Assembly (NCBI RefSeq): GCF_048403405.1
Contig: NZ_CP183129.1
DNA from: Escherichia coli
Lineage (GTDB): Bacteria > Pseudomonadota > Gammaproteobacteria > Enterobacterales > Enterobacteriaceae
DNA: 64,000 nucleotides
Strand: one strand, 5' to 3'
Positions 27,001 to 64,000 of the stretch are shown piece by piece. Made by a program: the position numbers. The first letter of the stretch is position 1; each line of letters opens with the position of its first letter.

Positions 27001-30000
27001 TGGCAGCAGAATGACGGTAATGACAACGGGGCTTATGTCGATACCTGGATCCAGTACGGATGGTTTAATAATGCCGTTAATGGTGAAAAACTGGCTGCGG
27101 AGTCCTGGAAATCCCGTGGATTTACCGGTTCAGTGGAAGCGGGTTATACCTTTAAAGCCGGCGAATTTATCGGTAGCCAGGGTAGCCACTATGACTGGTA
27201 TATTCAGCCGCAGTCCCAGATCACGTGGATGAATGTAAGAGCCAGTGAGCATACGGAGAAGAATGGCACGAAAGTTCAGCTCAGCGGAGACGGTAATATC
27301 CAGAGTCGTCTGGGCGTCAGAACTTACCTGAAAGGTAAGAGTGCGTCTGATGATAATAAGGCGCATCAGTTTGAGCCATTTGTGGAAGTTAACTGGATCC
27401 ATAATACACGGAGCTGGGGTGTCAAAATGGATAATACGGCACTCAGTCAGGACGGAGCTACAAATATTGCTGAAGTCAAAACGGGTGTTCAGGGTAAATT
27501 GTCAGATAACCTGAATGTCTGGGGCAATGTTGGTGTTCAGGCTGGCGATAAAGGGTACAGTGATGCCCAGGCAATGCTGGGTATTAAATATATATTCTAA
27601 TCACACAGTGGCAGGAGGGGACCTCCTGCCACCTCAGGGTTGTCATAATGAGTTCTGTAATGAAATTTTCTGTTGTTAATGCAGTAGTGCTGCTGTTGCT
27701 GATTGTACTTACTGGTGTTTTTTATATGAAAAAGTCAAAAGAAATTGCAGTTGTTAATATCGATGCTATTTATAATCAGTCTACCGCCGGAGACATGGCC
27801 AGAAAGCATCTGAATGAGGTTAAGAGTATTCTTGAAAAAGGATATGAGGATGCGCAAAAAGCATTCGCAGATAACGCGAATAAAGAGGCGCTGCTTCTTG
27901 ATGCCAGACAAAAACTGGAACGACAATATGTTATTGAGGAAAATAGCGCAAAAAAGGTGTTATCCCGTGCGATAGATAATGCCATAGGCACATGGAGAAA
28001 AGACAATCCTAAAAATATTGCCGTATTGTCTTCAGGTGTTGTGCTTGCGCATAACGAGTCAGCTGATATCACCAAAGAAGTCATGACTCTGGTTGAAAAA
28101 GAAAATCTGGTTTTTAATAAATTACCCAAAGTGGAAGTGCACAATAAGAATGAAGAGAAACCAGAACAAAGTAAGTAATCACTAGATTCTGACGATTTCC
28201 AGAAGGGAGATTCAGCAGGCCAGCATCTGTAATCATTCAGATTTGCTGGCTTGCTGCTAAATATGGTTGCTAAGAAAAATAGCAGACCAGTAATTTATTC
28301 AGATTACTGAATATAATAATTTTTCAGGAACGGTTATGCTGAAGGTAGTATGTTTAATCGACACAATTATTTGCTGTGTCTAATATGAGGTGACATTTTT
28401 ATGATCACTGACCAGCAAGACTGACCCGTATTGATTAGCCTGATTATTGGCAACTTATTGGGGTAGTCATTTTGACATCGAATGGGGGAGGTTTCCAGTT
28501 AAGTTCACGAATGCATGATGATTTGCGTTCACATATCGAAGTACTGGTTGACTATACTAAGGATTTTAAGATAACTCACTGATTGTAAGTGGGTTATTGC
28601 GAGGGGGATGATAAATGGTGTCCCCTGCAGACATCTACTTGACGAGGCAGGGGATTGATTGGAATGGTGTTTTTTAGATGTGAGAAATATTTTACCCGCT
28701 ATTTTACCCATTGGCGCGGCTTAAGAGCTTATTTTTGAATTCACAATGGTCACGATATAACCATCTTGCTCGCCCGTGGATAACTTTGGCTTTAGGCAGG
28801 TCGCCGGACTTAATCCGGTCGTAGATGAAGGTTTTACCGAAGCCAGTATCAGCCATGATGAATTTCAAATCAACCAGTGAATCAGGTTGTAGTTCGTGTT
28901 GCATGAGTGCTATCTCCGAATAGGGAATCGAACCTGCAAATCAGGAAATAAAAAACCGCCATCAGGCGGCTTGGTGTTCTTTCAGTTCTTCAATTCGAAT
29001 GTTGGTTACGTCTTATTCGATACGCACTCCTGGTATTTCGCCTTTTGATATTGCTAAGTCATAAATTTGCGCGGCACTATATCCATCCCGCATCCATGAA
29101 TCTAAGGCGCGAACAGCCTCGCTACGCTTTTTATCTTCTCTCTCATTTTTGATATCAACGAGGACATCAACGCAATTAAGGCAAATGTGGATTTTGTCCT
29201 TACATTCGATCATGGCGGCTTTACCATGATTTCCGCCACACAGTGAGCATAAATCTTCAGGGTCTGTCTGGTATTTCTGTAACGTTAGATGGTTGAATGT
29301 TGAACAGGCCATAATCATCTCCATAAAACAAAACTCGCCGTAGCGAGTTCAGATAAAAGAAATCCCCGCGAGTGCGAGGATTGTTATTCATTGCTGATAT
29401 TCACCTTTATCGCGAACACCTTTACCGGTTTATCACCGAAGTGCGGATGTGTGATTGTCTTGATTTCATATCCACCATACGGAACATCAATTCTGCGACT
29501 GGAATCGTCGCGCTTCGGATATCCCTTTGTGATAATCAGGCGGTCATATTCCCGGAACATAATTCGCTTATTCCAGTAGTCATTACACAGGCGATACTCT
29601 TCCGTTTTCTCCCCGCGAATCATGGCATCGAAGTATTCACCTTTGACGGCAAGTTGCAGGTTTGCCACGGTTAACCTCCTGCGGCGGTTCCGGTAGCCGC
29701 ATCCAGTGTGACGGCTCACATACCCCCTCAACACCATTCATGTAAAAGAATTGAAATAACCCTTTACCTTTGTGAAACCCTACCATCTGCTCTTTAGTGT
29801 CTGAGCAATAAACCAAAACATCTTCTTCGTTTGGCATTCGATCACTACAGCTTATCCAACCATCAGGAGCTACCGGAGAGTTGACACCGGGAATATTTTC
29901 CGGAATATTTTGTTGTGCGTTTTGTGGTTGTTCGGATTTACCCTGAAGCATGGCGGCGCGGCAGGCGTTCCAGCCAGCTGTTCGCCCAAGCGCGTAAACT

Positions 30001-63000: not shown

Positions 63001-64000
63001 TCTTGGTGTCGCAGCGATGAGTGAGACAAGAGAAGAATACGAAAAAGGAATAGAAAAGGTTTTCGGAAGAATGAAACCAGAAATCTAATTATGAAACCCA
63101 CCGTCAGGTGGGTTTTTTGTACAAATCCTTCAGCGTATCAAACACCATCTTCTTAACAAGTTCAGACTGCTCATCAGCGATGCGTTCCGCATCGTCTCGA
63201 TAGCCTGAAATTTTGGATGGCTTTGATACAGCATCAGTCACTATCTGAACTAATTCTGAATTAAGAGAGCGGCCATTGGATTTGGCTCGCTGTTTTAGTT
63301 TTTCCTTTAATTCGTAAGGTAGCCGCAGATTAAATTGCGGGTCATCTCTTCCCATTCTTGATGCCTCACTTTTGTAAGTGGATCGGCATCATATGATCTA
63401 CTGGTTATATCCACAATAAGACCACTGTGGTCTCAATGACGCATTGCCGTAGCCATGCTGCGGCGATTCCTTGTATCTGGAGCAAATTAAATGACAGACA
63501 TTACAGCCAATGTTGTAGTGAGCATGCCTTCGCAACTCTTCACTATGGCGCGTTCTTTTAAAGCCGTAGCCAATGGCAAAATTTATATCGGAAAAATTGA
63601 CACTGACCCGGTAAATCCTGAAAACCAGATTCAGGTTTATGTGGAGAATGAGGATGGTTCTCACGCTCCTGTATCGCAACCAATCATCATTAACGCTGCT
63701 GGTTACCCGGTATATAACGGACAGATTGCCAAGTTCGTAACTGTGCAAGGCCATTCTATGGCTGTTTATGATGCGTATGGTGCGCAGCAGTTTTATTTTC
63801 CTAATGTGCTGAAGTATGACCCTGATCAGTTTCAGAAGAGGTTGGCATCCTTTGATGATGGTGATGGGGATGAATTAGTGTCGGTGAAACAACCATTCCC
63901 CGGAGCAGCAAATCAAACTCAACACCAAAAGAACCAACAAATCATTGATGTTCTTGACTTCGGTGCTCATCCATCGAATGCTGACAATAAAGTAGCTCTG

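Follow-up and report, generated by a model that had tools for sequence, protein, structure and literature searches.

Positions 28615 to 64000 of the window, by which we mean the whole stretch of 64,000 nucleotides analysed, are taken up by a continuous mosaic lambdoid prophage that runs off the window end and has no interrupted gene inside it. The earlier note had proposed such an element, and direct comparison of its modules bore this out: a lambda immunity region and lambda-type Q, pR' and tR' are combined with non-lambda replication, a SAR endolysin and a P22-type morphogenesis cluster. With a probability of about 90%, we read the region as one temperate lambdoid prophage of the P22-like group (Lederbergvirus, CUS-3/HK620 lineage), integrated at the tRNA-Arg gene argW by a KplE1/HK620-type IntS/TorI module. 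Each of its modules has already been described, and what is new is their permutation in this prophage genome. Comparable mosaics, in which a P22/HK620/CUS-3-type phage carries a lambda repressor switch, are already in public genomes.

The top phage matches over the whole region were all P22-like podoviruses (vB_EcoP-720R6, phiv205-1, CUS-3, Kapi1, Sf101 and HK620). None of the complete E. coli genomes and phage records searched covers at least 80% of the prophage region, and function is therefore not transferable from an identical characterised phage; none of the complete E. coli genomes searched has more than 56% of positions 27000-50000. The earlier note had suggested aligning the whole prophage to lambda and to K-12 CPS-53. 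Lambda aligned in discrete blocks, confined to 34218-35986, 36611-37672 and 44063-45365, and CPS-53 at the torI-att end only, with nothing else aligning. The lambda-derived blocks make up ~4.5 kb of the 36 kb of prophage, and neither these nor the other module matches arose by chance, since their E-values are 0.

The restriction of lambda homology to discrete blocks could also mean that two elements lie side by side or nested, one a lambda-like remnant and the other a P22-like prophage. However, the lambda-like blocks lie at the matching functional positions of a single lambdoid gene order, in which the canonical functions are present in one copy each, and no duplicated function, internal att core or internal integrase was found. 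A tandem arrangement was rejected on these grounds. The same kind of module swap is seen in the GPEC874 prophage and in the lambda-immunity phages, and we hold two elements to be highly improbable.

The single mosaic prophage begins at its attachment site, followed by the excisionase and the early-left genes, whose names were taken from the annotation of homologous prophages:

28615-28630, minus strand: att core of 16 bp, ATGGTGTCCCCTGCAG, the same as the annotated HK620 attP core
28704-28904, minus strand: TorI-type excisionase (recombination directionality factor; PHROG 66, excisionase), 66/66 residues identical to HK620 hkaC/TorI
29013-31801, minus strand: non-essential early-left genes, among them an ASCH-domain gene, a DUF551 gene and three Ea22-like paralogs (PHROGs 3680, 625, 60, 250, 368 and 614)
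31978-33989, minus strand: recombination module (PHROG 253, PHROG 148 with E=6e-92, PHROG 3486), comprising a 104-aa regulator-like ORF, a Mu Gam-like end-protection protein (32304-32792), RecT (32770-33681) and a 103-aa ORF
34071-35068, minus strand: a cIII allele, ea10 and ral (Ea10 122/122 and Ral 98% identical to lambda)

Read in reverse complement, the core matches that of KplE1, CTGCAGGGGACACCAT (PMC2951348), as well as K-12 pawZ at the 3' end of argW; an intact argW would end in CTGCAGGGGACACCA. The core duplicates the 3' end of tRNA-Arg argW, corresponds to K-12 pawZ and marks the integrase-distal end of the prophage. In alignments with E. coli genomes the chromosome match stops at the core, with prophage DNA beyond it. 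In the KplE1/HK620-type recombination module the integrase lies at the opposite prophage end, adjoining argW (PMC2951348). TorI and one core copy are in the window, and IntS, argW and the second core are expected past base 64000. Within the early-left genes, the stretch from the cIII allele through ea10 to ral (34218-35163) is 96% identical to lambda.

The immunity region follows, with these elements:

35147-35473, minus strand: N antiterminator, 108 aa, 95/108 residues (88%) identical to lambda N
35672-35702, minus strand: nutL, with boxB (35672-35686) identical to lambda and boxA (35694-35702) carrying one substitution
35744-35804: OL1, OL2 and OL3 with pL; OL1 and OL2 identical to lambda, OL3 with one substitution
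35962-35984, minus strand: tImm terminator, identical to lambda
36165-36545, minus strand: 126-aa gene (PHROG 16322, unknown function) between cI and tImm
36612-37325, minus strand: CI repressor of lambda immunity, 233/237 residues identical to lambda CI
37336-37399: OR3, OR2 and OR1 with pRM and pR; OR2 identical to lambda, OR1 and OR3 with one substitution each
37426-37626, plus strand: Cro, 66/66 residues identical to lambda Cro
37634-37665, plus strand: nutR boxA and boxB, both identical to lambda

The closeness of N, cI, cro, OL, OR and the nut sites to lambda described in the earlier note was thus confirmed, and the sites differ by single substitutions only: of the six operators, three match lambda exactly and each of the others carries one change (for boxA, searched with 9-nt patterns, only exact and one-mismatch matches at aligned positions were counted). 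At the nucleotide level, identity to lambda is 96% for the N DNA (35213-35512), 94.6% for nutL-OL (35641-35843) and 97.6% for cI-OR-cro-nutR (36609-37672). The helix-turn-helix region of CI shows no change, and the protein keeps its Ala-Gly cleavage site and Ser/Lys dyad. Residues 1-86 of N are nearly identical to lambda N, whereas the C-terminal ~20 aa have diverged; its length of 108 aa is that of the N protein of CL707. Judged by their sequences, CI, Cro and the tripartite OL and OR have the features of the lambda immunity group, and N together with boxA and boxB of nutL and nutR makes up the features of lambda N/nut antitermination.

Alignment to lambda showed that rexAB and sieB are absent. 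The position of rexA and rexB is taken by the 126-aa gene, which had no Pfam, PADLOC or NCBIfam match and is also found in the GPEC874 prophage. Because of its slot, it is probably co-transcribed with cI from pRM in lysogens. It may be an uncharacterised exclusion or defence factor expressed in the lysogen, with a RexAB-like role, although we regard this as doubtful.

Downstream of nutR, the prophage leaves lambda:

37742-38023, plus strand: CII-like activator (PHROG 191), a non-lambda allele, 49% identical to lambda CII and 56% to the HK620 allele
38197-39057, plus strand: O-like replication initiator (PHROG 277), with origin iterons within the gene (38571-38636)
39165-41045, plus strand: bifunctional primase-helicase of 626 aa (PHROG 239, E=6.5e-171) in the place of lambda P
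41122-44076, plus strand: nin region with two small membrane ORFs, NinB, NinE, a PHROG 444 ORF, NinF, a PHROG 1258 ORF, an HNH/DUF1364 gene, RusA and NinH

The N-terminal 160 aa of the initiator are 49% identical to lambda O, and its C-terminus is unrelated. The origin consists of three 19-nt palindromic iterons, TGTCACCAAAACGGTGACA, spaced by 23-24 nt. In lambda, P recruits the host DnaB. Here no P homologue is present, and the 626-aa protein that stands in its place has Pfam Toprim_2 (residues 209-296) and AAA_25/DnaB_C (residues 355-594) domains, so the replication module is not of the lambda O + P type. The PHROG and Pfam assignments thus agree with the earlier note, which had named an O-like initiator plus a primase-helicase. 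The nin region proteins are 83-100% identical to their HK620/CUS-3 homologues, with the exception of NinB (95% to HK620, 36% to CUS-3).

The late switch returns to a lambda-like sequence:

44073-44696, plus strand: Q late antiterminator, 206/207 residues identical to lambda Q
44739-44968, plus strand: pR' (44739-44767, two substitutions relative to lambda), the qut/6S region and tR' (44940-44968, identical to lambda)
44971-45126, plus strand: tRNA-Asn(GTT) and tRNA-Thr(TGT), predicted by ARAGORN directly after tR'

These matches, with 96.8% nucleotide identity over Q-pR'-tR' (44065-44974), uphold the claim that the switch is lambda-like. However, P22 gp23 and HK620 Q are also close to this Q allele, at 98% and 99% identity. 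With nearly the same allele in P22 and HK620, Q is, as far as these comparisons reach, not a lambda-specific import; among the references compared, the tR' stretch (44797-44968) alone is lambda-specific. Aligned with lambda, the tRNA pair appears as inserted DNA.

Lysis genes and one accessory gene separate the late switch from the virion genes:

45370-45573, plus strand: class II (two-TMD) holin of 67 aa with the dual-start motif MYRM (PHROG 20, holin)
45551-46048, plus strand: SAR endolysin of the R21/RrrD type, 165 aa, 157/165 residues identical to PDB 3HDE over its full length
46045-46512, plus strand: Rz with embedded Rz1 (46265-46471), the spanins (PHROG 13, PHROG 3198)
46852-47340, plus strand: accessory gene with a T5orf172/MUG113 (GIY-YIG-like) domain (Pfam; PHROG 4284)

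The earlier note had called this lysis module phage-21-type, which held for the endolysin only. The protein retains the SAR segment and the catalytic triad E35/D44/T50 of R21-type SAR endolysins, and it matches 3HDE, the chain of which we take to be phage 21 R, and 4ZPU (RrrD) nearly equally. In contrast, the best Pfam match of the holin was PF16080 Phage_holin_2_3 of the HP1 family (E=5e-21); PF04971 (P21 holin S) reached only E=0.0012 over 30 residues, which in this Pfam comparison places the holin outside the S21 pinholin family. A pinholin-like mode of action is plausible for it, because the two-TMD class II layout is kept. The cassette DNA was closest (91-95%) to the Salmonella P22-like phages SEN22, SPN9CC and PS119, and Rz and Rz1 are 91% and 99% identical to those of HK620.

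The rest of the window holds the virion genes and an immI-like region:

47588-54147, plus strand: DUF2560 gene, small terminase (3), large terminase (2), portal (1), scaffold (8) and coat (5) (PHROGs 571, 309, 3717, 156, 648 and 283)
54150-61614, plus strand: a small ORF, gp4, gp10, gp26, gp14 and the ejection proteins gp7, gp20 and gp16 (PHROGs 637, 578, 1030/1219, 651, 598, 917 and 770)
61634-63355: immI-like accessory region between the gp16 and tailspike genes
61634-61963, minus strand: small membrane ORF at the sieA position, in the immI-like region
62120-63088, plus strand: P63C-domain protein, in the immI-like region
63104-63355, minus strand: Mnt-like Arc-family repressor, 76% identical to P22 Mnt
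63491-64000, plus strand: first 170 codons of the tailspike (gene 9), which cover the head-binding N-terminus and the beginning of the receptor-binding part before the window ends within the gene

The virion genes follow the P22 order 3-2-1-8-5-4-10-26-14-7-20-16, and all twelve are full length. The proposed P22 order through the tailspike therefore stands from gene 3 to gene 16; of the tailspike itself, the window holds the first 170 codons only. By protein comparison, we assign the virion module to the CUS-3 subtype of the P22-like phages. The coat protein is only 29% identical to P22 gp5, while the proteins from gene 3 to gp10 are 89-100% identical to those of CUS-3 (TerS and TerL 100%) and equal in length except for the coat (419 versus 417 aa). 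The gp26 tail needle has 317 aa and a knob. On proteins of related loci, the Pfam families P22_portal, P22_CoatProtein, P22_Tail-4, P22_gp7 and Phage_P22_gp16 were recorded.

The tailspike N-terminus retains the conserved head-binding domain (93% identical to HK620 gp9, 75% to P22 gp9), and every reference diverges beyond ~63831. The genes arc and ant are absent from the immI-like region (61634-63355), the arrangement of which recurs in loci L018-L021. For the accessory genes of the prophage, PADLOC and NCBIfam yielded no match. The exact Mnt and P63C proteins are found in thousands of unrelated P22-like prophages in other arrangements. The exact gp16, by comparison, was found in only three short Logan contigs, which are 98-99% identical at the right end (gp16/P63C/Mnt/tailspike) but not in the DNA upstream of it or in the receptor domain of the tailspike.

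Such recurrence bears on whether the mosaic could be an assembly chimera, in which reads from separate prophages of a single strain were joined. E. coli strains harbour multiple lambdoid prophages that share repeats, and the median genome has 3 matching places, which speaks for a chimera. However, each junction type was found again in independent records, and the chimera was rejected on that basis: the lambda immunity module lies inside a P22-like prophage in GPEC874, the gp16/P63C/Mnt/tailspike arrangement recurs in the three Logan assemblies, and Salmonella P22-like phages also have a lysis cassette that pairs a class II holin and a SAR endolysin. A chimera is thus extremely unlikely.

We further considered whether the prophage, which the earlier note had taken to be intact, is cryptic or defective, through a lesion past base 64000 (in the tailspike, intS or att) or a disabling point change in the window. 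No gene between 28615 and 64000 is broken, ~58 ORFs in 35 kb match the lengths of those in functional phages, and the window has no IS element, stop codon or frameshift. Past base 64000 lies most of the tailspike, and intS, argW and any O-antigen modification genes are also expected there, so a window that stops 170 codons into the tailspike leaves room for such a lesion. Prophages at the argW site are also often decayed, as in CPS-53, a 10-kb remnant, and in AP026463 (L017), a deleted P22-like remnant. Furthermore, OR1, OR3, OL3, nutL boxA, the N C-terminus and the N leader, which is unrelated to that of lambda, depart from lambda in this prophage; the operator variants, however, lie within an immunity block that is 99.8% identical to that of the plaque-forming wild phage CL707. 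We give a defective prophage odds clearly short of even.

For an intact prophage, the following life cycle can be proposed, all of its steps being drawn from homology. In the lysogen, lambda-type CI bound to OL and OR would silence pL and pR, and pRM would co-express the 126-aa gene. DNA damage would lead to RecA-stimulated self-cleavage of CI, after which N acting at nutL and nutR would permit expression of the early-left operon (RecT, Gam-like protein, TorI) and the early-right operon. The O-like protein would bind the three iterons in its own gene and recruit the phage primase-helicase. Q would then modify RNA polymerase at pR'/qut to read through tR', and late transcription past it would run through the tRNA pair and the lysis cassette and on into the virion genes of P22 type. 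The predicted virion would be built with a headful-type terminase, portal, scaffold, CUS-3-type coat, gp4, gp10, knobbed gp26, ejection proteins and tailspike, and lysis would be carried out by the class II holin, the SAR endolysin and the Rz/Rz1 spanins.

Beyond annotation, the prophage has little significance, but it is a clean case of how lambdoid phages exchange modules: at the argW hot spot, the lambda switch has come together in one genome with a primase-helicase like T7 gp4, a CUS-3-type head and a SAR-endolysin cassette that Salmonella phages also carry. A lysogen should resist lambda through immunity, and the genes in the rexAB and sieA slots are candidates for exclusion functions. 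If inducible, the prophage would be a natural P22-type podovirus controlled by authentic lambda CI/Cro; if viable, it would offer lambda regulatory genetics in a podovirus that recognises a surface polysaccharide.

Among known systems, K-12 CPS-53/KplE1 has the same attachment site with the 16-nt core, and over 340 bp (28615-28954) its torI-att end matches at 97.4% identity; it is otherwise a remnant without repressor, replication or virion genes. Phage 21 (pinholin S21 with R21) and the RrrD protein of DLP12 share the SAR helix and E-D-T triad with the endolysin described here, which likewise has a small holin with two TMDs and Rz/Rz1 as its partners. However, the holin belongs to PF16080 (HP1) and not to PF04971 (P21 S), and the cassette DNA is that of Salmonella P22-like SEN22, SPN9CC, ST104 and PS119.

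The immunity region has its counterparts in the wild lambda-immunity coliphages EF120455-EF120461 (CL707, HK244, HK542, HK544, mEp332, mEp234 and HK106) and in HK97 and SfI. The cI-OR-cro block is 99.8% identical to that of CL707 and 96.6-98.1% identical to those of lambda and the other members. These phages already vary in the rexAB slot, where CL707 has a 301-aa gene and the prophage one of 126 aa. None of the 36 phage records with at least 80% of the cI-OR-cro block was among the P22-like virion matches listed.

CUS-3 (CP000711) and HK620 (NC_002730), argW Lederbergvirus phages, have the same integration site, att core and overall gene order. The window is 94.7% identical to CUS-3 at the nucleotide level over 47338-56476, and at the amino acid level the terminases, gp4, gp10 and gp14 are 98-100%, the portal and gp7 97%, the coat 94% and the scaffold 89% identical to those of CUS-3. 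Where homologues were found, the identity of Q, RusA and NinH to CUS-3 and HK620 is 98-100%; for NinE it is 97-98% in both phages, and for NinB and Rz/Rz1 it is 91-99% against HK620. Both phages differ from the prophage in several modules: its immunity is that of lambda, with CI only 34-43% identical to theirs; it has a primase-helicase where they have a DnaB-like P protein; and it has a class II holin and a SAR endolysin where they have lambda-type S and R. In addition, its gp26 of 317 aa carries the knob, its tailspike receptor-binding domain differs, and its gp16 is nearest to that of P22 (76%).

The prophage of E. coli GPEC874 (NZ_CM142799, 1.515-1.545 Mb) is also P22-like and occupies the same argW/torI chromosomal site; 17 kb aligned of 37 kb compared. 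It differs in having Erf/Abc recombination, O with a DnaB-like helicase, a lambda-type holin with a GH24 endolysin, and a 233-aa gp26. In common with the prophage described here, it carries the same module of lambda-type N, 126-aa gene, cI and cro (92.7% nucleotide identity over 35647-38204). Its Q also has 207 aa, and its virion module, likewise of CUS-3 type, is 95.2% identical at the nucleotide level over 48185-56476.

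The element is, with a probability above 0.95, a single P22-like mosaic prophage. Annotation of ~58 prophage ORFs by PHROG, Pfam and tblastn showed each lambdoid function once and in canonical order, with IS elements, frameshifts and internal stops all absent. The best phage matches of both prophage halves were P22-like podoviruses of E. coli and Shigella (vB_EcoP-720R6, phiv205-1, CUS-3, Kapi1, Sf101 and HK620), and none of the matched phages reached 80% coverage of either half. Aligned totals were determined by local BLAST against reference genomes. The mosaic prophage described in an earlier note was confirmed; its interpretation was largely right, with corrections for Q, lysis and the tailspike.

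Aligned length of reference phages
CUS-3: 15.8 kb of 28001-64000
HK620: 11.2 kb of 28001-64000
P22: 9.0 kb of 27001-64000
lambda: 4.5 kb of 28001-64000

Positions 1-28600 are ordinary E. coli chromosome, carrying frc-oxc-yfdVE, evgSA, emrKY, dsdAXC, the ipuB/ipuA invertases, UpaE and an OmpH-like gene. In E. coli genome alignments, chromosome switches to prophage DNA at ~28614.

Features at the left boundary
19687-27600: UpaE, a phase-variable autotransporter adhesin of 2637 aa, by homology to NZ_CM192843
28615-28630: att core, ATGGTGTCCCCTGCAG, the same as the attP core annotated in HK620

Just outside the prophage, GC is low (0.34-0.36) across 16000-27600, where the ipuB/ipuA tyrosine invertases are followed by UpaE. 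The att core is the reverse complement of CTGCAGGGGACACCAT, the 16-nt duplicated core of KplE1/CPS-53, the K-12 cryptic prophage at argW (PMC2951348), and also matches K-12 pawZ, which copies the 3' end of argW (tRNA-Arg). The previously proposed start at 28616 was therefore right to the base. At 28615-28954 the DNA matches the torI end of CPS-53 with 97.4% identity, and the rest of CPS-53 gave no further alignment to the window. KplE1-type recombination modules have their excisionase, TorI, at one end of the prophage and their integrase, IntS, at the other, adjoining argW (PMC2951348), and the same layout is seen in the annotation of CUS-3 and K-12. A different, myovirus-type prophage that occupies this site in another E. 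coli genome ends in intS-argW-yfdC. Given this arrangement, the present prophage must have its integrase beyond base 64000. In another E. coli (AP026463.1), argW is occupied by a heavily deleted P22-like remnant, in which coat is almost directly joined to gp16 and the intervening genes are lost, illustrating a decay route of prophages at this site.

Several blocks of the early-left and immunity regions are derived from lambda.

Early-left and immunity features
34218-35163: end of cIII, ea10 and ral, 96% identity to lambda 33443-34381
35217-35502: N gene, lambda-aligned block
35503-35646: N leader, from nutL to the N start, unrelated to lambda
35647-35986: nutL, pL/OL and tImm, lambda-derived block
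36165-36545, minus strand: 126-aa gene between cI and tImm, PHROG 16322
36611-37672: cI, OR, cro and nutR, 97.6% identity to lambda

Ea10 (122/122) and Ral (98%) match their lambda counterparts, and N is identical to lambda N at 95 of 108 residues. The last ~20 residues of N are unlike those of lambda because ~54 bp stand in place of lambda 34381-35104, which includes sieB; comparison of the 35147-35646 region with lambda showed sieB to be absent. Since the N leader is unrelated, the RNase III-processed leader of lambda is not conserved. CI (233/237 identical to lambda) retains the cleavage site and the Ser/Lys catalytic residues, and Cro is identical (66/66), as are OL1, OL2, OR2, nutR, nutL boxB, tImm and tR'. 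OR1 (G8A), OR3, OL3 and nutL boxA (first base) each carry one substitution relative to lambda, within 35694-35804 and 37336-37399; these variants sit in an immunity block that is 99.8% identical to that of the wild phage CL707. The cII allele differs, with 49% identity to lambda cII. A single gene of 126 aa replaces rexA and rexB and is a candidate lysogen-expressed exclusion gene; it had no match in Pfam, NCBIfam or PADLOC. It is also present in the prophage of E. coli GPEC874, whereas the CL707 slot holds a different, 301-aa gene. Further into the early-left region, three Ea22-like paralogs lie in a row (30313-31801, minus strand) and share the PHROG families 250, 368, 60 and 614.

Replication follows another pattern. 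The 286-aa initiator has only its N-terminal 160 residues in common with lambda O (49%), and its gene contains three 19-nt palindromic iterons (38571-38636). The gene after it specifies a product of 626 aa, placed in PHROG 239 (DNA primase/helicase), that contains Toprim and DnaB_C/AAA_25 domains; no homologue of lambda P or of the DnaB-like helicase of HK620, CUS-3 or P22 was found in the window. This pairing of O with a primase-helicase also appears in the annotation of vB_EcoP-720R6, Sf101 and mEp043. In the nin region, a 63-aa predicted membrane ORF (41663-41854) had no PHROG match.

Late control and lysis features
44063-44968: Q, pR', 6S region and tR', 97.5% identity to lambda
44971-45126: tRNA-Asn(GTT) and tRNA-Thr(TGT), directly after tR', in place of the lambda orf-64 region
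45128-45365: conserved stretch upstream of the holin, lambda-matching block
45551-46048: SAR endolysin, full-length match to PDB 3HDE (157/165 identical)

Q had been taken as a lambda feature and is indeed identical to lambda Q at 206 of 207 residues, but this allele also matches P22 gp23 at 98% and HK620 Q at 99% identity. The P22 and HK620 DNA alignments begin at the Q start and end at 44796, slightly beyond pR'/qut, and only 44797-44968 (6S RNA and tR') is lambda-specific among the references compared. pR' differs from that of lambda by two substitutions. As the two tRNA genes adjoin tR' downstream, their expression should depend on Q antitermination; a tRNA-Asn also follows Q in a homologous prophage.

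The endolysin identity covers the N-terminal hydrophobic segment together with E35, D44 and T50. PDB 3HDE, labelled only 'Lysozyme' in the database, is taken to be the phage 21 SAR endolysin in its full-length form; 4ZPU (E. coli RrrD) matched almost equally well. The holin, 67 aa long, shows the two-TMD layout of class II and carries an MYRM dual-start motif; its Pfam assignment is Phage_holin_2_3 (HP1 family, E=5e-21), with the P21 holin S family reaching only E=0.0012. The proposed phage-21-type lysis is therefore right as regards mechanism class and endolysin, while the holin is of another family. Identity to the HK620 spanins is 91% for Rz and 99% for the Rz1 embedded in it. Over the whole cassette, DNA identity was highest to Salmonella P22-like phages (95% to SEN22 and SPN9CC; 91.5% to PS119, ST104 and SE1), whereas E. 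coli phages have only the endolysin-Rz part in common with it. Between the spanin and terminase genes lies a T5orf172/MUG113 (GIY-YIG-like) gene (46852-47340), a typical moron position.

The P22 virion gene order was borne out, with 3, 2, 1, 8, 5, 4, 10, 26, 14, 7, 20 and 16 each full length. By sequence, the capsid is assigned to the CUS-3 lineage: DNA identity to CUS-3 is 94.7% over 47338-56476, the coat is 94% identical to that of CUS-3 versus 29% to P22 gp5, and the portal 97% versus 35%. The gp26 needle (317 aa, PHROG 1030) bears a knob at its C-terminus, and gp16 is nearest to that of P22 (76%). Three accessory genes lie 3' of gene 16 (61634-63355). The first is a small membrane ORF placed where P22 has sieA, the second encodes a P63C-domain protein, and the third, which adjoins the tailspike, encodes a Mnt-like repressor with 76% identity to P22 Mnt; neither arc nor ant is present in this region. 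The exact Mnt and P63C sequences occur in thousands of assemblies with varied neighbours. The module was said to extend through the tailspike, which does start at 63491 with a conserved head-binding domain of ~115 residues, but the window ends at codon 170, and all references diverge past ~63831.

Within the window, there is no sign against a functional phage, and the prophage is somewhat likely to be inducible and productive. Past the window end would come the receptor-binding domain of the tailspike, any genes that follow it, intS, argW and the second att core. Exact-protein look-ups for the same prophage in other assemblies yielded relatives only. The genes that occupy the rexAB and sieA slots are candidates for exclusion functions.

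Lambda immunity is not unusual. At least 80% of the cI-cro block is carried by 36 records of the phage collection, including HK97, Shigella phage SfI and a wild-phage set with annotated lambda-type operators (CL707, HK244, HK542, HK544, mEp332, mEp234 and HK106). CL707, at 99.8% identity over 1056 bp, likewise has a 108-aa N and differs in its rex-slot gene. At least 80% of 35100-38100, with the 126-aa gene, is held by seven complete E. coli genomes. One of these, GPEC874, has the lambda immunity module in a P22-like prophage at torI/argW, together with a Q of 207 aa and virion genes of the CUS-3 type, and differs in its recombination, replication and lysis modules. Public data therefore already contain lambda immunity paired with a P22-like virion, and the present element puts well-known lambdoid modules together in a new permutation.
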